Source: an uncultured Candidatus Saccharibacteria bacterium
Lineage (GTDB): Bacteria; Patescibacteriota; Andersenbacteria; UBA10190
Assembly: GCA_964371255.1 (NCBI GenBank)
Contig: CAYJKV010000005.1
Coordinates: forward strand, 13,816 to 77,815
DNA: 64,000 nt
Direction: 5' to 3'
Shown here: positions 12,242 through 63,413 of the stretch, piece after piece
Layout of the letters: the number at the start of each line of letters is the position of its first letter
How positions within the stretch are numbered: the first letter of the stretch is position 1
Made by a program: the position numbers and the translations under genes
The notes under the pieces: generated by a model
The model's input: the letters and a program-made list of their open reading frames with translations, nothing else
What the model was told of the DNA's origin: nothing
The model's database searches: none

Positions 12242-12254
12242 ATATAATGACGGT

Positions 12255-22451: not shown

Positions 22452-22520
22452 AGGTGATATTATTTGTACCTAATTATTATCAATGCATCAATAGCGTGTA
22501 AACAAATCGCCTGCACGCAA

Positions 22521-22560
22521 TGTTTTTCATTTTTCGCTTTACGCTTTTCGTTTCTCTTGT
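22521..22560. repeat. Conserved T-rich tRNA-trailer motif, copy A (gtttttcatttttcgctttacgcttttcg)
   Basis: About 25/29 identical to the motif at 63731-63779, and similar to the one at 58616-58668. Confidence 0.7.
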
Positions 22561-22631
22561 GCCGCGGGTCAGAGTTGAACTGACTACGCCGACCTCTTCA
22601 GGGTCGCGCTCTACCGATGAGCTACCGCGGC
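22560..22631 (-). tRNA. tRNA-Phe (anticodon GAA)
   Basis: Reverse-complement GCCGCGGTAGCTCATCGGTAGAGCGCGACCCTGAAGAGGTCGGCGTAGTCAGTTCAACTCTGACCCGCGGCA. Anticodon loop is CTGAAGA. Confidence 0.8.
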
Positions 22632-22860
22632 GTTTAAACAATTATTAGTTGTATCTCTGAGGATAAGAGAAAGAGCAATTAATATCAATTATTTCCCTGT
22701 CCAACCCTTAAAGCTAGCCAACCTATACGTAGGCGTAGCCAGCTGATCAAAGATTGACAAGATTAATAATAGCTACTAATTTTATAGGTCATGCATGAGG
22801 CTGTTTTTTCGTCAGCAAGGAAGTACTTTTTACAACTCTTTTTGTGGAAGGAAGTGAGAC

Positions 22861-23865: not shown

Positions 23866-23964
23866 CCATCACCACCTATCGGTTGATGCTAGTAGCATTA
23901 ACCGATTTTTTATGCCGATATTTACAATCATAATATGTTAAGGTAAAACCATTATATCCATGCG

Positions 23965-24036
23965 GGGCGGTTAGCTCAGTGGTAGAGCAGTGCGTTTACA
24001 TCGCAAAGGTCGGGGGTTCGAACCCCTCACCGCCCA
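23965..24036 (+). tRNA. tRNA-Val (anticodon TAC)
   Basis: GGGCGGTTAGCTCAGTGGTAGAGCAGTGCGTTTACATCGCAAAGGTCGGGGGTTCGAACCCCTCACCGCCCA. Anticodon loop is TTTACAT. Confidence 0.85.
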
Positions 24037-24137
24037 CCTTACACAGCGTCCTCGCCTAACACGGCATATCCAATATTTACTACCTAAAAGCTTTAGCCAG
24101 AACAACTAAAGACTATATCCACTGTTAATATCATTAG

Positions 24138-24222
24138 TGCGGACGGTGGGATTTGAACCCACAACCTCGTAATGAGGCACAGCCCCTCAAGCTGCTGCGT
24201 AAACCAATTCCGCCACGTCCGC
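24138..24222 (-). tRNA. tRNA-Leu (anticodon GAG), long variable arm
   Basis: Reverse-complement GCGGACGTGGCGGAATTGGTTTACGCAGCAGCTTGAGGGGCTGTGCCTCATTACGAGGTTGTGGGTTCAAATCCCACCGTCCGCA. Anticodon loop is TTGAGGG. Confidence 0.8.
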
Positions 24223-27229: not shown

Positions 27230-28246
27230 TTATAAACCGCGCGGTTTTTGCGGACTGGCGGCCCGCCAAAACTTCATCACTGTTCTTAGGCGGTCTTCTG
27301 TGCCTATTGCCTCACGGCGGTTTGGCTGCGCGACCAGTCTGGGTGCATAGTACGACCAAATATCCCAGGTGACAAATCGCTCTCCCAACTCTTCCCGAAT
27401 AATAGCGTTCAGCCTGGGCAGCAATTTTGCGCCCGTTGTTTTAGCTCCTTTGACAACTCCGCTTTGCGGCGCTCTGATTTTATCCAACTTTGGGTCGGTA
27501 CTAAGAGCCCAGGCATCGATAAAGAAATTGCGGTCGGTCACCTCGTTTGTTACGTCCTGTCTATCATAAACATCATTGATAAACTTAAAACTAATCTCGC
27601 TGCCCGCGAAACTCCGCAGTAAACCCACTTGGTGTATGCGGTATTTATTATCCCCTTGCTCCATGGTTAAAACCTTCCACGCTTGCCCGTCTATATATAC
27701 CGCCACCTGGACCGGTTCCGGTTGATCATGGCGAGCGGTGATGTACAACCAATAGTTCTCACGCGTCACCCGAACAACCTTACTAACCGTTGACGTGTTC
27801 CCGGCCAGTCTTGCTACCACCCGTTCCTGGTCTTCAACGATAGTTGTATTACTGCCGCTGGTCTGATGCCCCCGTTCCGGCGCAAATGGATAAGTAACGA
27901 TATTGATGCTGGCTGCCGCGTCACCCCCGACACCGCCCGATCCCCCTCCGCCTTCATCGCCGCTCGTTTCTTCCCCGCTATCTGTCGGCCCCAGTACTTT
28001 TATTGTCACCGGTTCGCTTTGTGCCAGCGTGTCACCAATCTGCCCATCTTCCACTGTAATATTAAACGTATGATCACCTGGAGGGGCATCGGCGGGAATG
28101 GTAATAGCTACTTTCTGCTCCAAGATTGTTTCTGAAACAACTGAGGTCGTTATAAATTTTTGTATTTCTGGCACACTAAGTACGATGCTTCCCGTGATCA
28201 CCGCCCCGGCTAATAGAAATAAATACAGTTTAGATGTTTTTTTCAT
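27230..28246 (-). CDS. Secreted protein with a Gly/Ser-rich linker, hypothetical
   Basis: Signal peptide MKKTSKLYLFLLAGAV. Linker GGGGSGGVGG. No recognisable catalytic motif. Confidence 0.5.
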   Translation of the reverse strand: MKKTSKLYLFLLAGAVITGSIVLSVPEIQKFITTSVVSETILEQKVAITIPADAPPGDHTFNITVEDGQIGDTLAQSEPVTIKVLGPTDSGEETSGDEGGGGSGGVGGDAAASINIVTYPFAPERGHQTSGSNTTIVEDQERVVARLAGNTSTVSKVVRVTRENYWLYITARHDQPEPVQVAVYIDGQAWKVLTMEQGDNKYRIHQVGLLRSFAGSEISFKFINDVYDRQDVTNEVTDRNFFIDAWALSTDPKLDKIRAPQSGVVKGAKTTGAKLLPRLNAIIREELGERFVTWDIWSYYAPRLVAQPNRREAIGTEDRLRTVMKFWRAASPQKPRGL

Positions 28247-31059
28247 TATTTAATTTCACTGAAGTAGATATTAACTGTCATCTTCAACAGCAAACGGGCC
28301 TTGTCTAAAATATTTGACCTAACTGTAAAAGGTACTTCAATGGTCTGCCCAGGCCTGGCTTCTAATCTAGTCTGTCCTGGAATATTGATTGTTGCTTGGC
28401 GGGACACCGCCCTTACTATTGTCTCGTCATAAGCCGTCAGATTACCGTCATTGGCCATTAATCTTAAAACATATTCCCCTTCTTGCCTGAAGATTGCGTT
28501 AGTGGTTGCTGTTTGGCTATCACTTAACTCCATCTGTCCCGCTGGCCCACTGACCTGAGCCCATTCTACCAGCAGCGGGTTTGCTCCTGATATTCCATCA
28601 TCACTGACCACCCCCGTCATCTGAACAGGTTCATTGATCAGAAGCTGCAGGTCTTCCCCGGCCGAAACTTGCGGAGCATTATGGACAATCACCGCCACCT
28701 CATCAGCTGCCAACAGTTCACCGTCACTGGCACTGAGCCGTAGTATATAACGACCAGGTAAAGTAAAATCAACCGACGTGGCAGCCTGGTCGTATCCATT
28801 TATACTCACTTCGCCCGGTCCGCTAATTTTACTCCACAGGAGGTTCACCTGTCCTGGCTCCGTTGGTTTTCCGTCATCGGTCACCACTCCGGACAGCTGC
28901 ACTGCACTGCCCCATTCGGCGATAATATCATTTCCCGCGCTTACCTGGGGAGCTGCGTTGCGTACAATCACGGACACCTCGACTGTGCTAATAGATGAAC
29001 TCGCCTTACTATCTGAAGACACGTAAGTGAAAGTATCTTTCCCTGCAAAAAATCGATCCGACAAGTAAAGAAAGGAGCCGTTCGCATTGAGTGTCACATT
29101 ACCATGCTGTGACTCTTGTACTAGTTGTGCTGTTAAAATGTCGCTGTCTTCATCTGTGTCATTCGCCAATACGCCAGGTGCGGGGATCGTTAATTCCTCG
29201 TATTGAAAAGCCTCATAACTATCATTCTGGCCCACCGGCACCGTGTTCACTTGCACGATGATTTCGTCGGAAGATATTAATTCCCCATCACCTGCCTGCA
29301 ATCTTAAAGTATAATCTCCAGCTTCACTGAATGTAGCGCTAGTCGCAGCCAAAGTATCGTCTATAAACACCACTTCACCTGTCCCGCTTACTTTGCTCCA
29401 CATTATTTGCTGGGGCTGCCCCGGCGGCTCACCGTCGTCTTCCACTGTCCCAAGCAGTATTGCGGCATCGGGTAGATTAATTATCATATCCTCTCCCGCC
29501 TGTACCACTGGCGCGGCATTTCTGACCGCTACGGTTATTTCTACTGTGACCGGCTGTGATGTGGTTACTCCATCAAATGCCTGATAAGTAAAACTATCTA
29601 CCCCCCGCCAGTCGCTATTAGATGTATAACTAAACGAACCGTTGGCACTTAACGCTAATTCACCATGTTGCACATTATCGACCAGCTGTGCGGATAATTG
29701 ATCTCCGTCTGGATCGGTATCATTCTGTAATACGCCATTAGACATTTCTATCTGCAACGATTCACCTCTCCAGGCGTCATATTCTTCGTCATTAGCGCTC
29801 GGTGCTTGATTTTCCGCCTTGACCGTTATTACTACATCGTCGGTAGATGTCAAAGTTCCGTCTCCTGCTGACAATTCCAACACGTACACCCCTGCTTCCA
29901 AAAACGTGGCTGTTGTTGTCAATGCGGTCGCATCACCGAAAATCACCCCGTCAGGCCCGTTTACCTTACTCCATGCTACCGCTACGCTCGCTGGAGGATC
30001 CGGCAAGCCGTCGTCTGACATAGTACCATTCAGATTAACCTGACTAAGCGGCAACCTTATTTGTTGATCAACGCCGGCATTCACTGCCGGTGGAGAATTT
30101 TCCACCAAGACATTAATCACCGCTTCTCCGGTAACAATATCAGGGATGATTTCGTAACTGTCTGTCTCTATTAAAACATTGCCAAAAGGCTTACTAGATG
30201 ACTTATTGGCTGTCGTGACTGTTGTTTGTCCCACCCCCACTGCTTTGAAAGTGAATATCCCTAAAGTACCGGCGCCGCTATTATTATTGGCTAGGCTAAA
30301 ACCGCCCGATCTCACCTCTCCGGAACTGTTAATCGTACTCAAGCCCCGCGTATCAGCAATAAAAGTCGCAAAGTCCCCACTCTGTTGATCGACCAATGCC
30401 AGTTTAGTCTGGTCGAACCTCAAATATTGCGCCCAGTTCGCAAATGGAGTTGCTTCCTCCAGCCTTACTCTAATTTCTACGTTATCGCCCAAAGCCAGCT
30501 TTGTCTTGTTTGTTTGCAATGATAAATCTGGCGCCGGTGGTGCCGCCTCAACCGTTAAGATGATTTCATCGCTGCCGCTGGTTTGCCCGTCATTGGCTGT
30601 CAGTGCTAATGCGTACGTTCCGGCGACAGAAAAAGCGGCCGTTGTTTGCAATGCGTTTACAGATCCAAACGCCACATCACCAGGACCAGATATTTTGCTC
30701 CAATTAATTGTCATTTCGCCCGGCACTATGGGTAACCCATCATCGGTAGCTGTACCTGCCAAATTCGCTTCTTGAGGTAGACGAACAGTACTATCGTCTC
30801 CGGCTGCGACTGTTGGCGGCACATTCTTGGCCGTCACCACCACTTTCACGGGATCACTGGAAAAAGTATCAATACTGTCATTGGCGGTAAACTGGATTGA
30901 ATGTTCACCAATCAAACTTAGGTCATCAGGCACCGTATAGTGAAATATCTTTTGTATTTCCTGCTCGGGGGGCAAGACCTGTGTTCTAATATATTGCGTC
31001 AGCATACTGCCGGCAGCGACCAGCAACAGTAAGCCAGCTGCCACTACTATACCAGTCAT
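28246..31059 (-). CDS. Giant surface protein: N-terminal TM anchor, a cohesin-like domain, and at least 7 PKD/K319L-like Ig-fold repeats
   Basis: Repeating unit of about 95 aa: P.V.AG.D....LP.....L.G...DDG.P.......WSK.SGPG.V.F........A.FS..G.Y.L.L.A.DG.L...DE. Cohesin-like segment VRLEEATPFANWAQYLRFD...GGFSLANNNSGAGTLGIFTF. Start taken at MTGIVVAAG (31059). Confidence 0.7.
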   Translation of the reverse strand: MTGIVVAAGLLLLVAAGSMLTQYIRTQVLPPEQEIQKIFHYTVPDDLSLIGEHSIQFTANDSIDTFSSDPVKVVVTAKNVPPTVAAGDDSTVRLPQEANLAGTATDDGLPIVPGEMTINWSKISGPGDVAFGSVNALQTTAAFSVAGTYALALTANDGQTSGSDEIILTVEAAPPAPDLSLQTNKTKLALGDNVEIRVRLEEATPFANWAQYLRFDQTKLALVDQQSGDFATFIADTRGLSTINSSGEVRSGGFSLANNNSGAGTLGIFTFKAVGVGQTTVTTANKSSSKPFGNVLIETDSYEIIPDIVTGEAVINVLVENSPPAVNAGVDQQIRLPLSQVNLNGTMSDDGLPDPPASVAVAWSKVNGPDGVIFGDATALTTTATFLEAGVYVLELSAGDGTLTSTDDVVITVKAENQAPSANDEEYDAWRGESLQIEMSNGVLQNDTDPDGDQLSAQLVDNVQHGELALSANGSFSYTSNSDWRGVDSFTYQAFDGVTTSQPVTVEITVAVRNAAPVVQAGEDMIINLPDAAILLGTVEDDGEPPGQPQQIMWSKVSGTGEVVFIDDTLAATSATFSEAGDYTLRLQAGDGELISSDEIIVQVNTVPVGQNDSYEAFQYEELTIPAPGVLANDTDEDSDILTAQLVQESQHGNVTLNANGSFLYLSDRFFAGKDTFTYVSSDSKASSSISTVEVSVIVRNAAPQVSAGNDIIAEWGSAVQLSGVVTDDGKPTEPGQVNLLWSKISGPGEVSINGYDQAATSVDFTLPGRYILRLSASDGELLAADEVAVIVHNAPQVSAGEDLQLLINEPVQMTGVVSDDGISGANPLLVEWAQVSGPAGQMELSDSQTATTNAIFRQEGEYVLRLMANDGNLTAYDETIVRAVSRQATINIPGQTRLEARPGQTIEVPFTVRSNILDKARLLLKMTVNIYFSEIK

Positions 31060-31170
31060 TACCTCGCCCTTGTTTAACACCGATGCCTCAAGGTTACCTG
31101 GCCGGCAGCCTGTCGGCTCTCTCTTTACTCTCTGCCCTGGGCTATGCAGTAAATTAATCATCAGCCTTGA

Positions 31171-32376
31171 TTATTCAAATATTGAATCGGTAAACACTTG
31201 CGGACTGTCCGTTATAAAGTTGAATAATAAACTTGTCAGGTCCACATTACGACCTCTGACCGTAATTGGTATTGCAGCGTTACTGCCAATTTCTACATAA
31301 ACAACATCCGGGGCGACAAAGTACACTTCCGGTGCCGGTTGAACCGATATTGTTACTTCGTCTGTCGTGTTCAGCGCCCCGTCATTAGCTGTTAGTCGCA
31401 GCACGTATGTTCCATCCGTGCTGAATGTCGCTGTAGTGGTTGTCTTATCACCAGAGCCAAAAGTCACCGTGCCTGGCCCGGACACTTTGCTCCATTGCTT
31501 AGTTACCAGCGCTGGTGGTGTAGGCAAGCCATCGTCGGACACCGCCCCTATTAAAGTTATTGAGTTAGGTAGTCTGATTGTCTTATCCTCCCCCGCTGCC
31601 ACCACCGGAGCAGTATTATGCGGCCAGACATTTATTACTAATTCTCCTCCGCCTACCGTTGGAACAAAATCTGTTCCGCCGGTATCGCTAAATCGGTTAC
31701 CAAACAAGTTGGACGCGGAATAATTCTCAGTCGTAATCTTGACTGGCACCGGCACGGTTGCTGCCGCCGGCAAACTAGACTCAACCCTAAACGTAAAACT
31801 GCCTAATGTCCCGCTCCCCCCCTCGTTATTGGTCAAGCTAAAGCCACCGGCTCTAATCTCGTCCGTTTGGTTGATTGTTTGCAGACTTCTTGAATCCGGG
31901 ACAAACGTTGGCCAACTGCCGCCATTTTGTTGTTCCAGTTTTAGCAACCGATTATCGCCATTAAAGCCCAGCCATTCTTGCCAGCTGGCAAACGCAGCAG
32001 CGTCCGCCAGGTTCATGGTCACTGTCACGGCCTCACCAACAGTCACATTCTCTTTATCAACGCTAATTGTTAAATTAGTGTCACCTTCTCGGGCAAAATT
32101 GGCAATCACGATCATTAAGTCAGTATTATTAACCGCTCCGTCGCTATTAGCATCGGCGCGGCCATCCAAGTCTGGATCTCCCGTTGTTTTGCCAAAGTTA
32201 GCTGAAACTAGCATTAGGTCGGTAATATTCACTACCCCATCACCATTCAAATCGCCTAAAGTCCCAGCCGCTTCCGCCTTGATCGCCTGACCCCATATTA
32301 TGGCTAGCACAAATAGCCCTTTCAGAACGACCGAAGATTTCCAAGAAGCATTCATAAGGACAACAAAAGTATGCAT
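31171..32376 (-). CDS. Surface protein with signal peptide, type-I dockerin repeats, a cohesin-like domain and one PKD-like repeat (paralog of 28246-31059)
   Basis: Dockerin-like GDLNGDGVVNITDLMLVSANFG and ADANSDGAVNNTDLMIVIANFA. Cohesin-like VTMNLADAAAFASWQEWLGFN..GGFSLTNNEGGSGTLGSFTF. PKD-like APVVAAGEDKTIRLP..SDDGLP..WSKVSGPG. Confidence 0.7.
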   Translation of the reverse strand: MHTFVVLMNASWKSSVVLKGLFVLAIIWGQAIKAEAAGTLGDLNGDGVVNITDLMLVSANFGKTTGDPDLDGRADANSDGAVNNTDLMIVIANFAREGDTNLTISVDKENVTVGEAVTVTMNLADAAAFASWQEWLGFNGDNRLLKLEQQNGGSWPTFVPDSRSLQTINQTDEIRAGGFSLTNNEGGSGTLGSFTFRVESSLPAAATVPVPVKITTENYSASNLFGNRFSDTGGTDFVPTVGGGELVINVWPHNTAPVVAAGEDKTIRLPNSITLIGAVSDDGLPTPPALVTKQWSKVSGPGTVTFGSGDKTTTTATFSTDGTYVLRLTANDGALNTTDEVTISVQPAPEVYFVAPDVVYVEIGSNAAIPITVRGRNVDLTSLLFNFITDSPQVFTDSIFE

Positions 32377-51673: not shown

Positions 51674-52219
51674 ATGGCTCAACCCGAATCGTTCCTTCGT
51701 CCTGATCAGTTTTGGTCTGATCTTGATCTCCGTACAAATCAAACCGTTATCCACCTAGGTTGTGGTCCTGGCTTTTTTCTCTTGCCAGCTGCTCGTATTG
51801 TCGGCAAGCATGGGCAAGTTATCGGTGTCGACATCCGTGAAGACATGCTGCGCGAAACAGAGGGGCAGGCTAGACGTGAAGGCTTGTCAGATATCGTTCA
51901 GACTATTCGATCCGACTTAGAGCAAGGACCTACCAAAAGTATTAAAGCTAATATTGCGGACTGGACCCTCTTAGTAAATATTCTCCCCCAGGCTGATCCC
52001 AAAAAAATACTTCGCGAGGCAAAACGCGTGACCAAAACAGGGGGAATCATTATTATTGTGGAGTGGCTGCTTTCCCAAGCAACAATTGGTCCTCCGGTTG
52101 CAAATCGCATTACCAGAAGCGAAATTTTGTCTATAATTGATGAATTAAAATTAACCTTATACAAAACCTTTAGTCCCAGTTCATATCACTATGGCCTCCT
52201 CATTAAGGTTGAAAATTAG
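51674..52219 (+). CDS. Class I SAM-dependent methyltransferase
   Basis: SAM-binding motif VIHLGCGPGFF. The acidic residue after beta-2 is in VIGVDIRED. Confidence 0.75.
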   Translation: MAQPESFLRPDQFWSDLDLRTNQTVIHLGCGPGFFLLPAARIVGKHGQVIGVDIREDMLRETEGQARREGLSDIVQTIRSDLEQGPTKSIKANIADWTLLVNILPQADPKKILREAKRVTKTGGIIIIVEWLLSQATIGPPVANRITRSEILSIIDELKLTLYKTFSPSSYHYGLLIKVEN

Positions 52220-53510
52220 CGCCTCGATATTAACAGTAATAAGTCTGTTTACCTTAACGGGTGTTAGTTGTAATCCATTTAGCGGTAATGGCGGAAATTC
52301 TAACACTGATACACCCTTAGTAGTTTGGGGTTTGTGGGAAGAAAGTGTTGCGCTAGAGCCTATCATCACCAGTTTTCAGGAAGAAACAGGTGTTAATGTT
52401 GAATATCGCAAAATCGCCTCAGTCGCTGATTACGAAAATGAATTATTATCAGCCATTGCCGAGGATCGTGGTCCGGACATTTTTGTCATTCATCATACCT
52501 GGGTCGAAACCAAGCGGGGTTTAATGAGCCCCGCGGACCCTACTATTATTGACGAGCGTGCCCTGCGCGAAGAATTTGTTGATGTTGTGGCCGATGATCT
52601 AATCCGCGATGGCCATGTCTATGCCTTGCCGACCTCTGTTGATACCTTGGCGCTTTATTACAATAAAGACCTCCTGAGCGCTGCTGGCGTTGCCAGACCG
52701 CCTCGCACCTGGGATGAATTTCTATCCGTTATTGAACGCATCACTCGCGTCAATCGATTAGGTGTGATTGAACAAAGTGCTGCGGCATTAGGTACTGCCG
52801 TCAATATCAGCCGTGCGACTGACATTATTCAGCTGCTCTTTTTGCAAAGCGGCATCTCTTTAACCAATGCTGATAAAAAAATCCAATTATCCAACGACAT
52901 TGGGGTCAACGCCCTCACTTTCTATACCGACTTCGCCAATAAATCAAAAACGGCCTACACCTGGAATTTACAACAAGAACATTCTTTAGATGCCTTTTCC
53001 CAAGGGAAAACAGCGATGATGATAAATTACTCTTATCACATCCCCACCGTCCGGGCGAAGAATCCACGTTTACGATTTGACATTGCGCCCGTTCCTCAAA
53101 TCGTCGACAGTAAAGTCCAAAATTTTGCTTCCTATTGGCCTTACGCAGTCTCAAATAAATCCAGCGCCCCTGATACAGCTTGGCAATTTTTACGCCGTCT
53201 GACTAACACGGATGGTGCGATGGCCATTATTCGTCATCACCAGATTCCGCCTGCCCGACGCGATGGCGTCGCGGCTCTAAGCCGCGATCCAATCTTAGGC
53301 GTCTTTTCCGAACAATCTTTAACTGCCGTCACCTGGCCAAGAGGGGACATTGTGGCCATTGATGCTATCATGAATGCCATGATCGACAATGTTGTTACTG
53401 GTGCCTCAACCATTAACGCCAGCCTTGTCCGCGCCCAGGAGCAAATTAACCTGATTCAACCCACGCCAGCTGTCGAGCCAGCCGACCAGCCACCAGTCGG
53501 CGGTCTGTAG
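52191..53510 (+). CDS. ABC transporter substrate-binding lipoprotein (solute-binding family 1, sugar-type), orphan
   Basis: Lipobox LTGVSC. SBP_bac_1-like sequence. No permease or ATPase adjacent. Confidence 0.7.
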   Translation: MASSLRLKISASILTVISLFTLTGVSCNPFSGNGGNSNTDTPLVVWGLWEESVALEPIITSFQEETGVNVEYRKIASVADYENELLSAIAEDRGPDIFVIHHTWVETKRGLMSPADPTIIDERALREEFVDVVADDLIRDGHVYALPTSVDTLALYYNKDLLSAAGVARPPRTWDEFLSVIERITRVNRLGVIEQSAAALGTAVNISRATDIIQLLFLQSGISLTNADKKIQLSNDIGVNALTFYTDFANKSKTAYTWNLQQEHSLDAFSQGKTAMMINYSYHIPTVRAKNPRLRFDIAPVPQIVDSKVQNFASYWPYAVSNKSSAPDTAWQFLRRLTNTDGAMAIIRHHQIPPARRDGVAALSRDPILGVFSEQSLTAVTWPRGDIVAIDAIMNAMIDNVVTGASTINASLVRAQEQINLIQPTPAVEPADQPPVGGL

Positions 53511-53537: not shown

Positions 53538-53912
53538 ATGTATACTAAGCCCATGTCCATTATCACCCGTTATACCAAGCGATTATCCGTTATTCTGACC
53601 CTTGGGCTATTATTTTTGCCCCTTATCTCCCAGGCTCAGGCTACGCCCGCCAACTTTGAAAATCCCCTAGACCCTGTCAGGGACGTCCGGGTTCTAATTC
53701 AAAACCTAATTATTTGGCTTGTTGGATTATCGGCCCTCATCGCCCTTCTTGCTTTGGTTGTGGGAGGTATGCGTCTGATCGTTGGCGGTTTCGACAATGA
53801 ACAAGAAGCTGCCAAAGCAAAAAGAATTATTACCTGGGCTGTTATCGGCCTGGTTGTGGTAGCTATGGCGGCAGGCATTCTGTCTACACTCAGCGACGTA
53901 CTCGACATTTAA
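53538..53912 (+). CDS. TrbC/VirB2-like (CPR-type) pilin, single domain
   Basis: Signal peptide, then hydrophobic helix-GG-R-hydrophobic-acidic/basic loop-hydrophobic helix: LVVGGMRLIVGGFDNEQEAAKAKRIITWAVIGLVVVAMAAGI. Confidence 0.65.
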   Translation: MYTKPMSIITRYTKRLSVILTLGLLFLPLISQAQATPANFENPLDPVRDVRVLIQNLIIWLVGLSALIALLALVVGGMRLIVGGFDNEQEAAKAKRIITWAVIGLVVVAMAAGILSTLSDVLDI

Positions 53913-53930
53913 TCGATTAGATCATCACTT

Positions 53931-54563
53931 ATGCCTAAATTCCTGCCATCACTTATCATAATCCTGCTCGCTTGCGTCTTTTTAGTCTTACCCGTTCAAA
54001 TTCTTCATGCTCAAACGTCGTGCGACAACCTGTCCGCCTGCATAACCGAGACGTATTCTTGGGCCACCGAGACGGTTAGATTATCTCCATACACCATTAG
54101 TGAATTTCTGACTAACATCATAGTTTTTGTATCTTCCTTTGTTGCCATTGTGACAGCGGTCGTAATTTTGTTCGGTGGTCTCATGTACGTCTTTTCTGCT
54201 GGTGATGAAAGACGTGCCGCGCAAGCCAAAAACATTATTTTATTCGCCATTATTGGGCTAATCATTGCCGTCAATACCAGTATCATCGTCGGACTTATCC
54301 AAGACGTCGCTGGCGACCCTGCTGGTCCTGGTCTTGGGGTTGGGCCGATAATCGAACTGATTGGTCAGATTGGTATTATTATACTTGCTCCACTTGCTTT
54401 GATAGCCACTGGGGCCATCGTTTATGGCGGTTATATGTATATCACCTCGGCTGGTGAAGAAGATCGGGCTCGTCGTGGAAAACAAATAATTATCTACGCT
54501 CTCGTTGGTGTCTTTATTACCTTAATTTCAGCCTTAATAGTTAATGTTGTGATTTCGTTATAG
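53931..54563 (+). CDS. Tandem two-domain TrbC/VirB2-like pilin fusion
   Basis: Two copies of the pilin unit (..ILFGGLMYVFSAGDERRAAQAKNIILFAIIGL.. and ..IVYGGYMYITSAGEEDRARRGKQIIIYALVGV..) joined by a Gly/Pro linker. Confidence 0.65.
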   Translation: MPKFLPSLIIILLACVFLVLPVQILHAQTSCDNLSACITETYSWATETVRLSPYTISEFLTNIIVFVSSFVAIVTAVVILFGGLMYVFSAGDERRAAQAKNIILFAIIGLIIAVNTSIIVGLIQDVAGDPAGPGLGVGPIIELIGQIGIIILAPLALIATGAIVYGGYMYITSAGEEDRARRGKQIIIYALVGVFITLISALIVNVVISL

Positions 54564-54595
54564 CATTAAGCATCCTCACTAAAACTTTTAAGACC

Positions 54596-54985
54596 ATGCC
54601 TTTTAAGAACACCCTGCCCAAGTTACTGCAAACACGCATCTTATTATACGTCGTGTTCGTGTCATCTTTGTTTCCATTATCGACCTACGCCCAAGCTGTC
54701 AGGCCAGTGCCCAACCTGTGGTGTAGTCTGTGGGGAATCCGCTGCGGCGGTGGAGCGCCGCTTAATACTCTGTGGGGCATGCTGTGGTCAGTTGTCACCA
54801 TTGCTTTATCTTTTGTTGCCATTGTTGCTACTGCTTTTTTGGTCTATTATGGCTTTCTTTATGTAATGTCACGCGGCGAAGAGGACAACGCTCGTCGTGC
54901 CAAAGCCGGTATTGTTTATGCGATCCTGGGTATGATTGTTGCCGGTACAGCCGCTTGGCTGGTTAACGCTGTCATTAATATATAA
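54596..54985 (+). CDS. TrbC/VirB2-like pilin variant with a Cys pair in the mature N-terminus
   Basis: LWCSLWGIRCGG, then the pilin unit LVYYGFLYVMSRGEEDNARRAKAGIVYAILGM. Confidence 0.6.
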   Translation: MPFKNTLPKLLQTRILLYVVFVSSLFPLSTYAQAVRPVPNLWCSLWGIRCGGGAPLNTLWGMLWSVVTIALSFVAIVATAFLVYYGFLYVMSRGEEDNARRAKAGIVYAILGMIVAGTAAWLVNAVINI

Positions 54986-54987
54986 TT

Positions 54988-55812
54988 ATGGCCAGTATAG
55001 CAAAATCATTATTCTTTGTTGCCACCATCACTATCTTGGCCCTAAGCGTCTTCCCGGTTATCGCTCAAGTCCAACCAATTATTGCCCCCGATTGTGGTTT
55101 CTTGGGCATGAACTGTACGGGCGGTGAAACTTTTGGCGGCAATTTCGCTCCCTTTATGCTTACTCTCATCAACGTCGCTCTCGGCTTAATTGGTACCATA
55201 TCAACCGCCTTCATTGTTATTGGTGGCTACTTGTATGTCACCTCCACCGGTGACGAGCACAAGGCGGAAAGAGCTAAAAATCAGATTATTTACGCCATTC
55301 TTGGTCTTGTTGTTGCCGGTGGCGCATTTGCGCTAGTCAACACAGTCACTACTGTTACTTCCACTCCGCTCGTGTTTTACCTTGTGCCTTACGTTTTGAT
55401 GGCCTTATCTTTAGTTAGTATTATTGCCGCCATATACCTTGTTTATGCCGGATACTTATACATCACCTCCACCGGTGACGAGGAAAATTCTGCTCGCGCC
55501 AAACGGCAAATAGTCTACGCCATGCTCGGAATGTTTATTGCCAGTTCTGCTCTTGTTATCGTCAATGTTATCGCTAGTCGTGATGCCACGGGTCTAATCG
55601 TTAATATTCGCAGTGTTGTTAACACCCTTTTAACTATTCTGGGCGTCGCGGCGGCTGTGTATATTATTATCGCCGGCGCCATGTATATAACCTCTACTGG
55701 CGACCAAGACAAGTCGGCCAGGGCAAAAATGCAAATCGTCTACGCTCTGATCGGGATTGTTGTTATAATCTTGTCTGCCGTAGCTGTCAATCTCATCGTT
55801 AGGGCGGTCTAG
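54988..55812 (+). CDS. Tandem three-domain TrbC/VirB2-like pilin fusion
   Basis: Three pilin units (..GGYLYVTSTGDEHKAERAKNQIIYAILGL.. ; ..AGYLYITSTGDEENSARAKRQIVYAMLGM.. ; ..AGAMYITSTGDQDKSARAKMQIVYALIGI..). Starts 3 bp after the previous gene. Confidence 0.65.
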   Translation: MASIAKSLFFVATITILALSVFPVIAQVQPIIAPDCGFLGMNCTGGETFGGNFAPFMLTLINVALGLIGTISTAFIVIGGYLYVTSTGDEHKAERAKNQIIYAILGLVVAGGAFALVNTVTTVTSTPLVFYLVPYVLMALSLVSIIAAIYLVYAGYLYITSTGDEENSARAKRQIVYAMLGMFIASSALVIVNVIASRDATGLIVNIRSVVNTLLTILGVAAAVYIIIAGAMYITSTGDQDKSARAKMQIVYALIGIVVIILSAVAVNLIVRAV

Positions 55813-55890
55813 CCTCTCCCTTCCCGCGCCGTCCAAAATCCCTATTATCTAAATTTTATAAATAAGCTATATTAACATCACACCAAGGAG

Positions 55891-56250
55891 GTGAATTTTA
55901 TGAAAATAAAAACTACCCTTTTCGTTTTAGCGTTTCTCATGTTTCTGTTGGTCCCCACTGCATCTTTAGTTGCTAGCGGCCTGACGACAGTGACACCTTT
56001 TGAGGGTACTGCCACAAATAGGGATCCTATCGTGGCCATAACTAACCTGGTTAACGGTTTGCTGGTTGTTGTCGGTATTATCGCGGCTATTTTCGTTGTT
56101 ATTGGTGGTATGCGCTATATCTTCTCGCAAGGCGATGAAGACGCTCAGGTTCAGGCGCGTAACACAATTCTCGCGGCCGTGATAGGTATCGTTGTGGTTA
56201 TTCTATCCGCCGTGGTTGTGAACTTGGTGATCAGGGCTGCTCGAGGATAA
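55891..56250 (+). CDS. TrbC/VirB2-like pilin, single domain
   Basis: AGGAGGTGA ribosome-binding site. Signal peptide. VVIGGMRYIFSQGDEDAQVQARNTILAAVIGIVVV. Confidence 0.7.
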   Translation: MNFMKIKTTLFVLAFLMFLLVPTASLVASGLTTVTPFEGTATNRDPIVAITNLVNGLLVVVGIIAAIFVVIGGMRYIFSQGDEDAQVQARNTILAAVIGIVVVILSAVVVNLVIRAARG

Positions 56251-56548
56251 ACTATTACAATCTAAATCATTGTCTGGGTCGCTGACGGCTTCTGCGGCGA
56301 TTTTTGCTAAGCAAACAAGATATTTACTCAAGCAAACATCCAGTCACGCGCTTAGCGCAATTATTTACCTGCTAATTTAACAGACACCGATGGTCTCGGC
56401 ACAAACGTAGATAACCTACACTGGACTCTGCTGTTTTAACTCATGAAGACTGCCGGCAAAAATTTGCGACTATAGTTTACTCAAGAAAAGTGCTATATTT
56501 TTCATATAATCCACGCCCAGACAGAAGGCGTTATAAATTTTTCAGGAG

Positions 56549-56902
56549 GTGATACAAATGATTTGCAAAAAAACTATACTAACCATCTCGCTCGTGAGTT
56601 TAGTGCTTCCTCTGGTCGTCAGCGCCCAAGGATTCTCGCCTGTCACACCGTTTGCTGGCACTTCTACTGGCACCTTGATTCAGGCCATCACCAACATAGT
56701 TAACGCGTTATTAGCCCTCGCTGCTGTTATCGCTGCTATTTTCGTCATTATTGGCGGAGTTCGTTATGTTACCTCCCAAGGCGACGAGGATGCTTCCGAG
56801 CAGGCTAAAGGCACTGTCCTTTATGCAATAGTCGGCATTATCATAATCGCCCTGTCAGCTGTTATTGTGAACTATATTATTGCCGCTGTCCCAGCGGGAT
56901 AA
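56549..56902 (+). CDS. TrbC/VirB2-like pilin, single domain (close paralog of 60036-60377)
   Basis: AGGAGGTGA ribosome-binding site. QGFSPVTPFAGTSTGTLIQAITNIVNALLALAAVIAAIFVIIGGVRYVTSQGDEDASEQAKG. Confidence 0.7.
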   Translation: MIQMICKKTILTISLVSLVLPLVVSAQGFSPVTPFAGTSTGTLIQAITNIVNALLALAAVIAAIFVIIGGVRYVTSQGDEDASEQAKGTVLYAIVGIIIIALSAVIVNYIIAAVPAG

Positions 56903-57222
56903 TATTCTTTGGTCAGAAAGTAAACAACCAATTTAGCTGTCTCAATTTTCCGGCCATCGCCATCTGTTAGTACGTGATTCGGTGAGTCGCGTACTTTTGT
57001 GTATACACCAGAAAAATACCAGACAAAAAAGAGTCATGGGTTGTCAGGTGGCACCTGGCATTGATTTGCCCTCTCTCAGGAGCATTTCCGCTTTGGTATT
57101 TGGACTTTGTGTCCCCGTGCTTGAAACTTATATGATTGGTTATTAATTGAAAATTGAATCCTTTCTAATTCTAACGCACTGTACTTTGTATCCTTTTTCT
57201 AATTTACTTATAAGTATCACCT

Positions 57223-58768: not shown

Positions 58769-59929
58769 ATGACAACAAAATTCAACCCCCACCTCTTTTT
58801 AGCTGTCTTTTTAGTCTCCTTTCTGATTCATTCCAGCTATTTTCGGTTAATAACTTTTGCGGACTATGACAAATGGGTCGCACGAACCATTAACTTGTCA
58901 GAGGACATATTGACCCCATCACCGCAAATACGTTTTTTTGACGTGAATCACGAATACCGTTATGGTTCGCATCCCGGCACAACCTTTCTTCTGCCCGCTG
59001 CCTCTTTATATAAACTTGGCCTGCCTGGTCCCACCAGCCTCTTCCTCAGCATTACATTCATTTCTTCTTTCTTGACCGCTTCTATTGCAGCTGCCTGCCA
59101 TCACTTAAGGCCCAGAAGTCCCTGGTGGCTGATATCGTCGATTATTCTCTTTATCCACCCGCTCTACTTCTACAGCACACCGACTAATGCTATTATCGGG
59201 CCCATCACTGCCTTGCTTTTCCTCTTAGCCCTAATTGTGTACGAGCAAAGGAAGCAATCGTTGTCTGTTGGTTTAATATTGTTTATATCATTCATTTTTG
59301 GGCTAGGCTTATCTACTCGCTTGCACGATACAGTATTCATTGGTGCTCCCCTGATCACTTTTATAGGTGCCTATGTGCGTAAAAAACACCTTATCTTAAT
59401 GATCTTGGCAGCGGCTTTATTCGCTTTCGTCCTTAACCCGTTCCTCTGGTTCATTCCCCTGGAATATCTGAAGACCGCCATTCTACGCACCTCTTCTCAT
59501 CTCGCCTACACTGGGATGCCTGGTTTCAACCTTACTCTTCTTTGGGCGCTTTATTATACGCCGCTGACCATTATCTCTATTGCCCTCGCGGTCGTGTCCT
59601 TTATCTTTGCCCGAAAAAAACTACCCGTTTCTTCTCCCTTTCTTCTCACTCTGTTTCTCATTACTGCCATCACCATCGGTCTGTTCCGAAGCGCCAACTT
59701 TAAAACGCTTCGCTATTTCTACCCATTAATTTTTACTTGGGATATTTTCTTGCCGCTATTTCTCCTTTGCTTGTCTGACAATATTTACTTTCCTTTTATT
59801 TCTTCAGTGCGTTCTGCCCTCTACGCCCGTCATTTAACGCGCCTCGTGCTAATGGTAATCGTCGTTTTTGGCTTTGCTTTTCTGACCGCCTATAACTTGC
59901 TTTTGCCTGGTTCTCAAGGACTTATTTAA
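58769..59929 (+). CDS. Polytopic membrane protein (about 11 TM), possible glycosyl/oligosaccharyl-transferase-like
   Basis: Hydrophobic throughout, with short loops. The only functional hint is its position next to the GT4 gene and the pilin genes. Confidence 0.45.
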   Translation: MTTKFNPHLFLAVFLVSFLIHSSYFRLITFADYDKWVARTINLSEDILTPSPQIRFFDVNHEYRYGSHPGTTFLLPAASLYKLGLPGPTSLFLSITFISSFLTASIAAACHHLRPRSPWWLISSIILFIHPLYFYSTPTNAIIGPITALLFLLALIVYEQRKQSLSVGLILFISFIFGLGLSTRLHDTVFIGAPLITFIGAYVRKKHLILMILAAALFAFVLNPFLWFIPLEYLKTAILRTSSHLAYTGMPGFNLTLLWALYYTPLTIISIALAVVSFIFARKKLPVSSPFLLTLFLITAITIGLFRSANFKTLRYFYPLIFTWDIFLPLFLLCLSDNIYFPFISSVRSALYARHLTRLVLMVIVVFGFAFLTAYNLLLPGSQGLI

Positions 59930-60035
59930 ACACAAAAATGTGTATGGAGAATAATATGACAATTAACCAGTTAGTGTGTTATTATTTATGCATACCTAAA
60001 CGTCTAACATTACCAGAGAAGGAGGTGAGGAGGAC

Positions 60036-60377
60036 ATGAACATTAAGAAAGTATTAGCTACCACAGCCGCTGTCGGTTTGATAGCGATTCCAATGATTGC
60101 CTCTGCTCAAGGATTTGCACCGGTGACTCCATTTGAAGGGACTTCAACCGGCACACTGATTCAAGCCATCACCAACATTGTTAACGCTCTACTCACCTTG
60201 GCTGCTGTTATCGCCGCTATCTTTGTCATCATCGGTGGCGTGCGGTACATAACCGCTCAAGGAGATGAAGATGCAGTCGCAGCTGCGAAGAACACAGTTA
60301 TCTATGCCGTCATCGGTATAGTCGTGATTGCTTTATCAGCCGTAGTCGTCAACTTCATTATTGCTGCCATCCCGTAA
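60036..60377 (+). CDS. TrbC/VirB2-like pilin, single domain
   Basis: AAGGAGGTGAGGAGG ribosome-binding site. QGFAPVTPFEGTSTGTLIQAITNIVNALLTLAAVIAAIFVIIGGVRYITAQGDEDAVAAAKN. Confidence 0.7.
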   Translation: MNIKKVLATTAAVGLIAIPMIASAQGFAPVTPFEGTSTGTLIQAITNIVNALLTLAAVIAAIFVIIGGVRYITAQGDEDAVAAAKNTVIYAVIGIVVIALSAVVVNFIIAAIP

Positions 60378-60662: not shown

Positions 60663-60890
60663 ATGACCATTCTTCCCCCTGAAGTTATTTTAGCTGTCAA
60701 CGCCGCCTTGTTGCTTATATCTGGCATCATTACGATGCTTTTGCTACGCACCGGCGTCCATTACGCCCATAGTGTCGGAGATTCCGCCGCCCAAGACACT
60801 CAAAAGAAGGCTATCTTAATATTCGTCTTGTCCCTTTTCGCTCTCAGCCTTCTGGCCGCCTCGTTTAACGTCCTGGTTTCCTCCGTCTAA
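60663..60890 (+). CDS. Small membrane protein, hypothetical
   Basis: 75 aa, 2 TM. Confidence 0.3.
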   Translation: MTILPPEVILAVNAALLLISGIITMLLLRTGVHYAHSVGDSAAQDTQKKAILIFVLSLFALSLLAASFNVLVSSV

Positions 60891-61013: not shown

Positions 61014-62255
61014 TTACTTACTCTCTGCGTCCGCTACCGGGAAGAAAACTTCCCAATAAACTAACGCCGGCGTTGGTGGCTGGAAGTAAACAACCGCCCG
61101 CTCAACCTGTTCATCCGGATTTCCTTCCCAGAACCTCCTCACCTCAGCTGACGTGACAGTGAAACTGTCACGTGTCGGGCTCTCTCTCGCGGGAAATAAA
61201 GGCCGGAGCTCTTTCCTGAACACAGACACAGCGTCCATACCCGCTTTAAGCGCTTCTGGGTTCGAATTGTCCAGAGTAACGTTCTCGGGCATCAACCACA
61301 ACCTCGGCTGCTGTGTGTCATAGAAGCCTGGAACAGTAATTGTCTCCTTAAGTTCCCACGCTCCCGGTGCAACAGGTTCCGACGGAATAAAGGTTATTCG
61401 CATCGTCCAACTCACTTCCTCCCCATCAACCCTAAACGGTACCACGCCTGGTACCTGGAGAGAGTTCGGCATGCACGTACTGTACGAACCAACCCAAAGA
61501 ACACTGTCATTTGGCAGTTTTGTCACAGTTGCTGTGCATTCCAAACCGTTCACGCCAACTGTTCTACCAAAATTAGGATGTCTTGAGTATCCGGAAGTAC
61601 TCCGAACCTCTAAGAACAACGCCACTTCGTTGGTACCTATGCGGTTTTCATCACCACATACTTGGAATGGTTCCTGATCCTGCCTAGTAATCCACCACGC
61701 GGGTGTTGCTGGCAGCGAACTTCCTCCTAACCTGGTTTCCACCATCGCGCCTTGTAATAGCGGTCCAATTGGCAGCGGTAGATATCCGTGCTTATCAATC
61801 GAACCTGTCCATTCCCTGCGCATCCTGTTCCATCCTTCGTCTGGTCCAGTCATAGACCGTAGCATCCAATCATTTATCTGGTCAGGCGCAACATTCGTCA
61901 TCACCGTCTTTGGACCACCAACAATAGTTCCGTCAGCACCATCTTCAGCAATAGGGGGTATAGCATGTATCTCCCTCCCATTTTCCACTGCTGTTGAAAT
62001 TGCGTCAGGTTTTTCGTCGGACAGTTCGTCGCTACATCCTTTCGGGAAGAACATCCAACACAGAATCAATAAGAGGATGATTGTCATGCGTCCCAGATAG
62101 CGTTGAATCCAGCCTAGCACACTTAAAAACGCCGCTGGTCCTAGTCTGGGGATATGCGCACCGAACGCTCTGGTAATTTTCACGATCACGATCACGATCA
62201 CAGCCACGATGAATAAAGCGCATATCACGGCAATGAAATGTAGTACCACGCTCAT
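61014..62255 (-). CDS. Membrane-anchored extracytoplasmic protein, hypothetical
   Basis: Two N-terminal TM helices followed by an extracellular domain of about 330 aa. Same strand as, and 12 bp downstream of, the SPFH gene. Confidence 0.5.
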   Translation of the reverse strand: MSVVLHFIAVICALFIVAVIVIVIVKITRAFGAHIPRLGPAAFLSVLGWIQRYLGRMTIILLLILCWMFFPKGCSDELSDEKPDAISTAVENGREIHAIPPIAEDGADGTIVGGPKTVMTNVAPDQINDWMLRSMTGPDEGWNRMRREWTGSIDKHGYLPLPIGPLLQGAMVETRLGGSSLPATPAWWITRQDQEPFQVCGDENRIGTNEVALFLEVRSTSGYSRHPNFGRTVGVNGLECTATVTKLPNDSVLWVGSYSTCMPNSLQVPGVVPFRVDGEEVSWTMRITFIPSEPVAPGAWELKETITVPGFYDTQQPRLWLMPENVTLDNSNPEALKAGMDAVSVFRKELRPLFPARESPTRDSFTVTSAEVRRFWEGNPDEQVERAVVYFQPPTPALVYWEVFFPVADAESK

Positions 62256-62267
62256 TCTAGCTCTCCT

Positions 62268-63413
62268 TTAGGGGTTTTCTTTTTTCAGGAATCCTTCAAT
62301 GGCTGATAGCACATCCGCTGCGTCTTTCACGTTTATGGCAGATAATTTTATTTCGCCTGCCTTGCTGCGAATCACATCCATTAGGAATGCTTTCTGTTTG
62401 TCATCTGTCAGACCCAGCTTATCTGCCAGTGCTTCGATACCTTCCGCTTCACCAATGCGACGCAGTCTTTCGATCGCCTGTTGTTTTAAGCCTTCCTGAT
62501 GGCCAATAAAACTTAGATCAATCGCTCTGGATGCCTCAGCATCGTCTGGGGAAGCGGGTTGAAGCTGAATTTTCTCAACTACGATATTGCACACTAACAG
62601 AGAATCACCGGTCTCAAATGTATCATCATCAGGAGTAGGTCCAGGAATACGTCTAAGCAGCTTGCCCTGGATGAAGATGGTGTCGTCATCTTCGGTAAGC
62701 GCTTTACGCACTTTCCTCTCAAATAGACCCCTTTCTCTGATTATGTCATTGTTCACAACATCTCCCGCTGCCGGAAACACAGAAAAAGTGAAGAACGTAG
62801 CCGCTTCTCGCATAGCTTCCTTCATTGGCTTATTTACTACCCGGAAAAAACGTGCAGCAATTCGTTTGACTGACTCTTCCACCCCGTTCTCCTGAATAAG
62901 CACCTCGTGGTTAGTCAAATCCCTCGCACTCTTTGACAGGTAGTAATTCAGATCCTGCTTAAACAGGGAGAAAACTATCCCCAGATGCACCGGGTTTTCT
63001 GACAAACGGATTTGAAGAGTGGCGTCTCCTTCAACTCTTACTCTTGGATACTGCGTATTTGATGAGTCTGTGTACATCATTGAGGCATGGATAGGCACCT
63101 CAAACTGATCTGTCGGTACGCGATATCCAAGGTAAAGCGGCCACAAGCCGAAAGCCCAACTGCCCTTCCAAAAGGCCAACTTAACGGTATCTTGGTCAGG
63201 CACCTTAGCTCGGTTGCTGATGTTTTGGTCTCCAGCCCATGATTCGTCCCAATAGGAACGACCCAGCACCGTTCTCTCATACTGACCAAAGCGGTAAAAC
63301 ACAATTTTTTCATTAGCCCTCAGCATGTACAACGACTGGTAGATGATCACAGCCGCAACCATTGCTAGAGCCAACCCCACAACAGCCAATTCCACGATCG
63401 TTAACGTGTCCAT
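62268..63413 (-). CDS. SPFH/band-7 (stomatin/flotillin-like) membrane protein
   Basis: N-terminal TM, then IVFYRFGQYERTVLG (SPFH core start), and a C-terminal coiled coil. Confidence 0.65.
   Translation of the reverse strand: MDTLTIVELAVVGLALAMVAAVIIYQSLYMLRANEKIVFYRFGQYERTVLGRSYWDESWAGDQNISNRAKVPDQDTVKLAFWKGSWAFGLWPLYLGYRVPTDQFEVPIHASMMYTDSSNTQYPRVRVEGDATLQIRLSENPVHLGIVFSLFKQDLNYYLSKSARDLTNHEVLIQENGVEESVKRIAARFFRVVNKPMKEAMREAATFFTFSVFPAAGDVVNNDIIRERGLFERKVRKALTEDDDTIFIQGKLLRRIPGPTPDDDTFETGDSLLVCNIVVEKIQLQPASPDDAEASRAIDLSFIGHQEGLKQQAIERLRRIGEAEGIEALADKLGLTDDKQKAFLMDVIRSKAGEIKLSAINVKDAADVLSAIEGFLKKENP

Follow-up and report, generated by a model that had tools for sequence, protein, structure and literature searches.

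Two- and three-unit fusions of VirB2-like pilins in a patescibacterial pilin gene cluster

What does it mean when a pilus subunit is encoded as a chain of helical hairpins? Canonical pilins of the VirB2, TrbC and TraA type have one hairpin per polypeptide and polymerise as monomers, mostly with bound phospholipid, and some of them are cyclised. The question is raised by a cluster of seven pilin genes (g1 to g7) in a 64-kb stretch of DNA from an uncultured Candidatus Saccharibacteria bacterium (64,000 nucleotides of contig CAYJKV010000005.1, hereafter the window). Genes g1-g6 are closely spaced on the plus strand (53538-56902), and g7 is set apart from g6 by two intervening non-pilin genes. The original prediction, made from the letters of the DNA, held that a pilin unit is repeated twice and three times within single open reading frames (ORFs) of this cluster. 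Its coordinates do correspond to two complete plus-strand ORFs, g2 and g4, and we hold with high confidence that these encode genuine fused VirB2-like units, with a polytopic topology in which the N-terminus lies outside. The features of the two genes, all on the plus strand, are as follows, with a slash marking the predicted leader cleavage site.

53931..54563, plus strand: g2, a 210-aa two-unit pilin; PF18895 in two stretches (E 1.1e-11, 45.1 bits)
53931..54011, plus strand: predicted Sec signal peptide of g2, aa 1-27, ending ...ILHA/QTSC; hydropathy peak at aa 4-22, site judged by eye
54093..54305, plus strand: g2 unit 1, aa 55-125, a helical hairpin with loop VFSAGDERRAAQAKNII
54306..54344, plus strand: g2 inter-unit linker, aa 126-138, VAGDPAGPGLGVG; without Lys or Arg, predicted outside
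54345..54557, plus strand: g2 unit 2, aa 139-209, a helical hairpin with loop ITSAGEEDRARRGKQII
54988..55812, plus strand: g4, a 274-aa three-unit pilin; PF18895 in three stretches (E 4.9e-28, 97.5 bits)
54988..55065, plus strand: predicted Sec signal peptide of g4, aa 1-26, ending ...PVIA/QVQP; from hydropathy and conserved in homologues, site judged by eye
55066..55140, plus strand: g4 mature N-terminal segment, QVQPIIAPDCGFLGMNCTGGETFGG; present once per protein, with a conserved Cys pair
55141..55353, plus strand: g4 unit 1, aa 52-122
55366..55578, plus strand: g4 unit 2, aa 127-197
55591..55803, plus strand: g4 unit 3, aa 202-272

The order of parts in g2 is leader, Cys-x5-Cys segment, unit 1, Gly/Pro linker and unit 2; in g4 it is leader, conserved Cys-x6-Cys segment and three hairpins at a period of 75 aa. 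A Cys-x5/6-Cys segment follows the leader in g2, g3 and g4, once per protein rather than once per unit, and is missing from g5-g7. In g4 the mature N-terminal segment has a majority-residue fraction of 0.72 over six homologues.

The family assignment rests on PF18895 (T4SS_pilin), the VirB2/TrbC-like pilins of type IV secretion systems (T4SSs). All seven genes score above its curated cut-off of 26.6 bits, and g1 (29.6 bits) and g6 (28.8 bits) also exceed the cut-off of PF04956 TrbC/VirB2 (27.9 bits). The NCBIfam model NF045849 agrees with PF18895 in matching g2 in two stretches and g4 in three; relative to its 40-bit cut-off, g4 scores 79.8 (three units summed), g2 34.3 and the single-unit genes 21.6-31.6. 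The unit itself is a helical hairpin of ~71 aa, whose boundaries were set with a hidden Markov model (HMM) built on the window's own units, a model that is circular for significance and was used for boundaries only. The units align end to end without gaps, and the repeats of each protein recognise one another in BLASTP (g4 units 1 and 2, E 5e-22; g4 units 2 and 3, 7e-19; g2 units 1 and 2, 2e-13). Identity is 28-46% among units within the g2 and g4 chains and 22-58% between pairs of units across the cluster. The motif that had been read from the sequence (helix-GG-Y...GDE...AK...YA..G) recurs in each unit of the alignment, in the form G-G/A-x-x-Y-[IV]-x-S-x-G-[DE]-E...A-K...Y-A-x-x-G, with invariant or nearly invariant positions G29, Y32, G37, E39, A45, K46, A52 and G55. 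The g4 unit closest to the single-unit pilins is unit 3, with 51% identity to g5 and 48% to g6.

The name 'pilin' is appropriate for these units but has to be narrowed: they are of the VirB2/TrbC type of type IV secretion (PF18895) and are not type IV pilus pilins. The latter identity was rejected because no match to the N_methyl motif of type IV pilins (PF07963) is present at E<=1 in the cluster proteins, the leaders are Sec-like and end in A/Q, and each unit has two helices. The units share with canonical VirB2, TrbC and TraA (PF04956 and relatives) a cleaved leader, two helices around a charged loop, and termini outside. They differ from the VirB2/TrbC superfamily in that one ORF holds two hairpins in g2 and three in g4, instead of one hairpin per polypeptide.

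Could assembly, frameshift or read-through have fused neighbouring single pilin genes? We consider the chance of this to be negligible, since nothing specific speaks for it beyond the general risk of metagenome assemblies. The unit junctions of g2 and g4 contain no stop codon, no start or Shine-Dalgarno signal and no second signal peptide, and the downstream units have no leader peptide of their own. Four contigs, assembled separately from four European Nucleotide Archive (ENA) samples, agree in every base of positions 53931-55812, and the exact 274-aa g4 protein is found on at least 23 contigs. The four samples probably share one population, so the identity demonstrates reproducibility of assembly rather than biological independence. 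No DNA-level tandem repeat was found in the region, which rules out a recent duplication or a repeat-collapse artefact; together with the ~30-45% identity of the units, this means that the duplication is old and that repeat collapse or mis-joining is implausible. Also against an artefact are the orthologous fusions in three other genomes, the hundreds of multi-unit relatives and the purifying selection on the genes, all described below.

How would such chains sit in the membrane? Hydropathy gives one hydrophobic N-terminal leader per protein, followed by four (g2) or six (g4) segments of transmembrane (TM) length; leader cleavage sites were judged by eye, and topology was taken from simple hydropathy and charge counts. 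The leaders of g1-g4, g6 and g7 end in a common A/Q pattern (ILHA/Q, PVIA/Q, STYA/Q, VVSA/Q and IASA/Q), and the cluster units have the VirB2-type layout of a leader followed by two hydrophobic helices around a short charged loop. The loops of g2 and g4 have 3-4 Lys or Arg residues (K/R) each and the linkers 0-1. Among 182 multi-unit proteins, the 664 loops within units contain 0.172 K+R per residue and the 488 linkers 0.043. By the positive-inside rule, K/R-rich loops are cytoplasmic, and for membrane-stored VirB2 and TraA pilins the accepted topology has the loop inside and the termini outside. The K/R distribution therefore places the loops in the cytoplasm, and the linkers, the mature N-terminus and the C-terminus outside. 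On this prediction, head-to-tail fusion preserves the VirB2/TraA-type topology for every unit. The suggestion that the fused chains have a polytopic membrane topology is thus upheld by hydropathy and charge, with four predicted TM helices in g2 and six in g4.

Hairpins of the g4 family are always connected over the same length (75-aa period, 14 proteins), although the linkers are the least conserved segments. They contain no conserved small-x-small or other cleavage motif, and candidate -1 residues include N, F, R and Q. The combination of fixed length, poor sequence conservation and lack of a cleavage motif suggests a tether under geometric constraint.

Structure prediction agrees with the hairpin. 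AlphaFold2 modelled the isolated 71-residue unit 1 of g4 as a two-helix hairpin (helices 2-34 and 39-70) with a mean predicted local distance difference test score (pLDDT) of 89.3. For g4 with a nine-sequence alignment, it gave six long helices in three pairs at pLDDT 57.8, a model usable for secondary structure only. When the single-unit model was compared with the PDB by Foldseek, ATP synthase subunit c came top, followed by PsbZ and chemoreceptor hairpins, all at E>=0.8, and no VirB2, TraA or TrbC chain was among the top 50. For the three-unit model, the matches were to 14-3-3 and BAR-type helical proteins at E>0.2 and carry no meaning. A sequence profile search of the PDB with the unit alignment yielded only a designed coiled coil and PsbZ. 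The modelled fold neither supports nor contradicts the Pfam assignment.

Are the fusions maintained in evolution? The same flanks, consisting of gyrA, a methyltransferase, a solute-binding protein, pilins and a glycosyltransferase, are present in GCA_001001305.1, GCA_001817065.1 and GCA_043811915.1. The window and GCA_001817065.1 share 94% identity in GyrA, and the window accordingly belongs to the Andersenbacteria lineage of that genome. The comparison with orthologues confirms that the fusions are kept in frame, with differing unit numbers. In two Candidatus Andersenbacteria genomes (GCA_001001305.1 and GCA_001817065.1), there are four units in the g2 orthologue (382 aa) and two in that of g4 (202 aa), whereas GCA_043811915.1 shows the reverse, with two for g2 (198 aa) and four for g4 (375 aa). 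Overall, orthologues and homologues of g4 carry two, three or four units. The pilin genes are 59-72% identical to those of GCA_001817065.1, with pN (nonsynonymous differences per site) of 0.18-0.25 vs pS (synonymous) of ~0.75; because synonymous sites are saturated against this nearest available relative, it can only be stated that pN is much lower than pS. The low pN relative to pS indicates that the pilin genes are fast-evolving under purifying selection.

In a neighbour-joining tree of units, positions within the chains are orthologous across species. The last units together with the single-unit pilins g5-g7 form one clade, the penultimate units a second and the first units a third. The two-unit g4 of Andersenbacteria lacks a unit of the first type, which is duplicated in the four-unit homologue P0002, and units 1 and 2 of the window's g2 are the counterparts of units 3 and 4 in the four-unit orthologue. 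Because positions are orthologous while their number differs between orthologues, unit number changes by gain and loss of internal or N-proximal units. The constant parts across orthologues are the leader, the N-terminal Cys-loop segment and the C-terminal unit. The conserved residues of the family are kept equally in first, middle and last units, so that no unit looks degenerate.

How widespread are fused units? When 1.84 billion cluster representatives were searched with a profile of the ten window units, 62,349 matched at E<=1e-3. The best 150 of these all have at least two matched stretches, with a maximum of 17 in a 1775-aa protein; because scores sum over units, the list of top matches is biased and represents a lower bound rather than a frequency. 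At least ~180 representatives of 50%-identity clusters carry 2-17 fused units, and the original description of the architecture as unusual was in that respect overstated, since it is not peculiar to this locus. For 182 retrieved proteins that were re-analysed, the distribution of unit number is the following.

1 unit: 3 proteins
2 units: 42 proteins
3 units: 76 proteins
4 units: 26 proteins
5 units: 11 proteins
6 units: 6 proteins
7 units: 10 proteins
8-15 units: 8 proteins

The retrieved proteins have one N-terminal lead of ~51 aa, a C-terminal tail of ~4 aa and linkers with a median length of 17 aa. Among the longest are P0050 (1775 aa), P0057 (1147 aa), P0060 (1039 aa), P0071 (966 aa) and P0121 (1382 aa), with 10-17 fused hairpins and Cys-containing linkers. 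Long members with a named source come from Candidatus Altiarchaeales archaea (P0060, 10 units; the P0121 cluster, 9-11 units), and the poly-hairpin architecture therefore crosses the divide between bacteria and archaea. At another locus (L011, 4129-8913), two multi-unit pilin genes are immediately followed by the gene for a 1594-aa protein with a weak PF18895 match and many PKD domains, possibly a pilin-anchored adhesin. The literature searched contains no description of intragenic concatenation of VirB2-type pilins, although its coverage of subscription journals was thin and this is not proof. One four-unit homologue already bears the name 'MMCAP2_0565 family pilin-like conjugal transfer protein' at NCBI, and multi-unit pilin proteins are annotated in databases but not discussed.

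The remaining pilin genes of the cluster each encode a single unit.

53538..53912, plus strand: g1, single-unit VirB2-like pilin; PF18895 E 2.4e-14, PF04956 TrbC 29.6 bits (cut-off 27.9)
54596..54985, plus strand: g3, single-unit pilin with an N-terminal Cys-x6-Cys segment; PF18895 E 5.1e-07
55891..56250, plus strand: g5, single-unit pilin; PF18895 E 1.4e-10
56549..56902, plus strand: g6, single-unit pilin; PF18895 E 2.5e-13, TrbC 28.8 bits (cut-off 27.9)
60036..60377, plus strand: g7, single-unit pilin; PF18895 E 8.2e-13, strong Shine-Dalgarno sequence (GAAGGAGGTGAGGAGG)

Likely start codons are ATG 53553 for g1 (119 aa, according to the gene call on identical contigs, L001), ATG 55900 for g5 (with AAGGAGG upstream as Shine-Dalgarno sequence) and ATG 56558 for g6 (AGGAGG upstream). 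The ATG of g4 directly follows g3, which is the 'Cys-variant' pilin of the original prediction, with a gap of 2 nt after the stop codon (TAA-tt-ATG) rather than the 3 bp first given. This tight spacing is consistent with the proposed translational coupling of g3 and g4, and is kept as a 2-nt gap or a 4-nt overlap in the syntenic loci L006, L007 and L008. Genes g1-g4 lie 2-32 nt apart and have no Shine-Dalgarno sequence (checked at 53915-53931, 54575-54596 and 54975-54988), whereas strong AGGAGG sequences precede g5 (55880-55900), g6 (56540-56558) and g7 (60015-60036), each of which has its own upstream region. Because of this difference in ribosome-binding sites and packing, the sequence weakly suggests that the single-unit g5-g7 are major subunits and g1-g4 minor ones. 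A scan for promoters and terminators gave promoter-like sites at the number expected from shuffled sequence; only a terminator-like hairpin 3' of g6 (56969-56995) stands out. One contig that is otherwise identical (L004, 9468-9931) has ~155 extra bases in the g5-g6 intergenic region (window 56250-56558).

Several neighbours of the array can be described. Between g6 and g7 lie a GT4 glycosyltransferase gene and, adjoining it, a gene for a ~10-TM protein (58769-59929, plus strand, 386 aa) that has no Pfam match at E<=1; the layout is the same in L007, and the protein could be a membrane glycosyltransferase acting on pilins or the envelope. On the 3' side of g7, a 74-aa ORF (60664-60887, plus strand) with two hydrophobic segments matches the unit HMM weakly (E 4e-5); it lacks a leader peptide and any Pfam match, and may be a degenerate or leaderless pilin-like hairpin. 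Immediately 5' of the array, a gene for a family-1 extracellular solute-binding protein (52191-53510, plus strand) overlaps the methyltransferase gene upstream and has no neighbouring permease or ATPase genes; it precedes the pilin array in the window and in all syntenic loci L005-L008. Elsewhere in the window, a large serine recombinase gene (20778-22451; Resolvase and Recombinase domains, 536 aa) ends inside an opposite-strand tRNA-Gly gene and adjoins a cluster of four tRNA genes (22377-24222), a region that may mark an integrated element. Three consecutive genes for predicted surface proteins occupy 27230-32376 on the minus strand, and comprise a 971-aa protein with PKD and cadherin-like repeats, one with dockerin and PKD domains, and one with a sub-threshold CBM60 match. 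Three further minus-strand ORFs of 792, 413 and 381 aa (9944-12322, 61014-62255 and 62268-63413) have N-terminal hydrophobic segments.

Is the array part of a T4SS? The link is indirect, by way of family membership, VirB4 in related genomes and the locus of a two-unit relative. Of 1948 assemblies, 1135 have the PF18895-type family co-located with virB4 (PMC12102498), and the Andersenbacteria genomes that share the locus (GCA_001001305.1 and GCA_001817065.1) are listed as VirB4-positive. The two-unit relative P0028 (228 aa) is the first clear member of a pilin array in a Saccharibacteria-type T4SS locus (L013, 206-10108), where the array is divergent from VirB4-like, TraC-like, PrgI and TrbL_3 genes, with Hsp20 downstream. 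The Candidatus Southlakia T4SS locus SEML1_0008-0020 is arranged identically. Single-unit PF18895 pilins are essential in Candidatus Southlakia epibionticum, which has an essential six-gene pilin array, SEML1_0014-0019 (Wang et al. 2023, PMC10633639). The members of that array have one PF18895 stretch each; in SEML1_0015 the match covers aa 115-180, and this protein might hide a second, degenerate unit.

The closest precedent is found in the arrays of 2-11 separate VirB2-like genes described in 383 patescibacterial assemblies (Quinonero-Coronel et al. 2025, PMC12102498). Like these, the window's array consists of divergent chromosomal genes that match PF18895 with or without PF04956, has low identity (here 22-58%) and is interrupted by non-pilin genes (here two before g7). 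It differs in that the published arrays are made of separate genes, whereas two members here are intragenic chains of two and three units, and in that it does not adjoin virB4 within the window. The host also differs from those of canonical pilins in being monoderm-type, with an MPF-FATA-like T4SS (PMC12102498). In Bartonella and Anaplasma, virB2 units have likewise been multiplied and diversified at one locus, and the tandem paralogues are proposed to vary the surface or host interaction (cited in PMC12102498); those are, however, separate genes of diderm pathogens with no covalent linkage. The NF045849 Mbov_0395/MMCAP2_0565 family of Mycoplasma integrative and conjugative elements is matched by g4 (79.8 bits in three stretches), but the model is an 80-position single-unit profile on proteins of those elements, and its name is silent on concatenation. 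An analogy only is offered by the rotor subunits of V- and A-type ATPases, in which the hairpin protomer of a membrane oligomer has been concatenated by gene duplication to variable length, with two fused hairpins in the V-type and up to 13 in Methanopyrus kandleri (PMC3639240). The rotor subunits have no sequence homology to the pilin units (E ~1), which in turn have no carboxylate ion site, and the rotor is a closed ring of unrelated function rather than an open helical filament.

What, then, do the chains do? The explanation we favour stands, as a whole, at about an even chance. Its well-supported part is that each chain has one Sec-type leader, whose predicted cleavage leaves the mature N-terminus outside. 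Each unit is predicted to span the membrane twice, with the K/R-rich 'S-x-G-D-E...A-K' loop in the cytoplasm, and successive units to be joined outside by short uncharged or acidic linkers, giving four TM helices in g2 and six in g4. The chains arose by internal duplication and loss of units. Beyond this, we propose that they would stay uncut, serving as covalently pre-linked and probably low-abundance building blocks, and would co-assemble with the single-unit g5-g7 in the pilus-like conduit attributed to the patescibacterial T4SS. By analogy with the rotor rings of V/A-type ATPases, the fused hairpins would fill consecutive positions of one helical strand. Co-assembly as covalently pre-linked subunits, taken by itself, is a tentative proposal that we rate somewhat below even. 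It is favoured because every unit keeps the residues conserved in free pilins, because the last unit of g4 is 48-51% identical to g5 and g6, because a linear strand would tolerate the varying unit number of orthologues and a fixed scaffold would not, and because the g4-family linker is constant in length, least conserved and free of a cleavage motif. Several points weigh against it. The 64-kb window contains no T4SS machinery gene (virB4, virB3/prgI or virB6) among its ORFs of >=500 aa, all of which were scanned and are housekeeping or surface proteins or have no P-loop; nor do the 792-, 413-, 381- and 386-aa ORFs have a Pfam match at E<=1 or a Walker A motif. So far, none of the patescibacterial T4SSs has been observed with a pilus (PMC12857230). 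The signal peptide and topology calls come from simple hydropathy and charge counts; the three-unit AlphaFold2 model is of low confidence and gives no guide to hairpin packing; and the fold searches are non-specific. The sole ground for taking g1-g4 as minor subunits is that they lack Shine-Dalgarno motifs. Finally, we know of no precedent in VirB2 pilus biogenesis for extracting from the membrane a chain of 4-6 helices, let alone the >=30 helices of some relatives.

This last difficulty would not arise if the multi-hairpin proteins stayed in the membrane, as a base, nucleation template or channel-lining element of the machine or in some other non-filament T4SS role. The predicted 4-6 TM helices suit such a platform, as do the relatives with 15-17 hairpins, which would be hard to pull from the bilayer. 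Monoderm T4SSs normally have no pili (PMC12102498), and the conserved N-terminal Cys-loop segment distinguishes g2, g3 and g4 from g5-g7. Unit numbers of two, three or four in otherwise identical loci nevertheless speak against a scaffold of fixed stoichiometry, and both the free-pilin residues kept in all units and the similarity of the last unit to single-unit pilins argue against a platform, so that we regard a membrane-resident role as unlikely, though deserving serious consideration. It is also conceivable that the chains are polyproteins, inserted by means of the single signal peptide and afterwards cleaved within the outside linkers, perhaps by an enzyme of the signal-peptidase or TraF-like kind, to release several different mature pilins in a fixed ratio. 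Canonical TrbC and VirB2 pilins do mature by proteolysis, the second helix runs from inside to outside after a K/R-rich cytoplasmic loop and so resembles an internal signal sequence, and variable unit number would easily be tolerated. We consider cleavage improbable, however, because the linkers are the least conserved segments and lack a small-x-small or other conserved motif, their strictly kept length within the g4 family looks more like a geometric tether than a site of cleavage, and no peptidase gene adjoins the array. Finally, PF18895-type hairpins might simply be small membrane proteins of a generic kind, associated for instance with the envelope or with glycans, for which the name 'pilin' is misleading. 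The array does lie among housekeeping genes, beside an orphan solute-binding protein and glycosyltransferases; no T4SS gene was found in the window, whose ends are >8 kb and >50 kb from the array; and the fold searches match generic hairpins such as ATP synthase subunit c. A function outside type IV secretion is quite improbable all the same, given that g1 and g6 pass the Pfam TrbC/VirB2 cut-off, that the family occurs with virB4 in so many assemblies (PMC12102498) and that P0028 is encoded in a bona fide T4SS locus.

The intragenic two- and three-unit chains extend the recently described patescibacterial VirB2 arrays, and are widespread and apparently undescribed. Cultivable Saccharibacteria T4SS loci also hold multi-unit members, and surveys of pilin arrays by gene count undercount units when intragenic copies are ignored. 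If a monoderm-type T4SS is suspected of building a pilus, this is chiefly because of its VirB2-like pilins (PMC10633639, PMC12857230), and such pilus building has been a matter of speculation for the T4SSs of Patescibacteria (PMC12857230). A bolder reading, which we put forward as a speculation that is more doubtful than co-assembly itself, is that 'poly-VirB2' proteins, with 2 to >15 hairpins in Patescibacteria and Altiarchaeales archaea, are previously unrecognised covalent segments of a protofilament, either threaded whole into a conjugation-type pilus or nucleating it. They may take over the tip or nucleator role of VirB5 in lineages without VirB5. If this is true, there would be an assembly step that extracts many TM helices at once, which lies outside current models of VirB2 pilus biogenesis.

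Current models for the growth of conjugative pili have single two-helix pilins extracted from the membrane and added one by one, and conserved chains of 2-17 hairpins are therefore informative whatever the outcome. Should the chains enter the filament whole, the machine would have to cope with multi-helix substrates, and the lattice with covalent connections running along a strand. Chains that remained in the membrane would be a new structural component of the machine, and chains that were cut would be the first pilin polyproteins.

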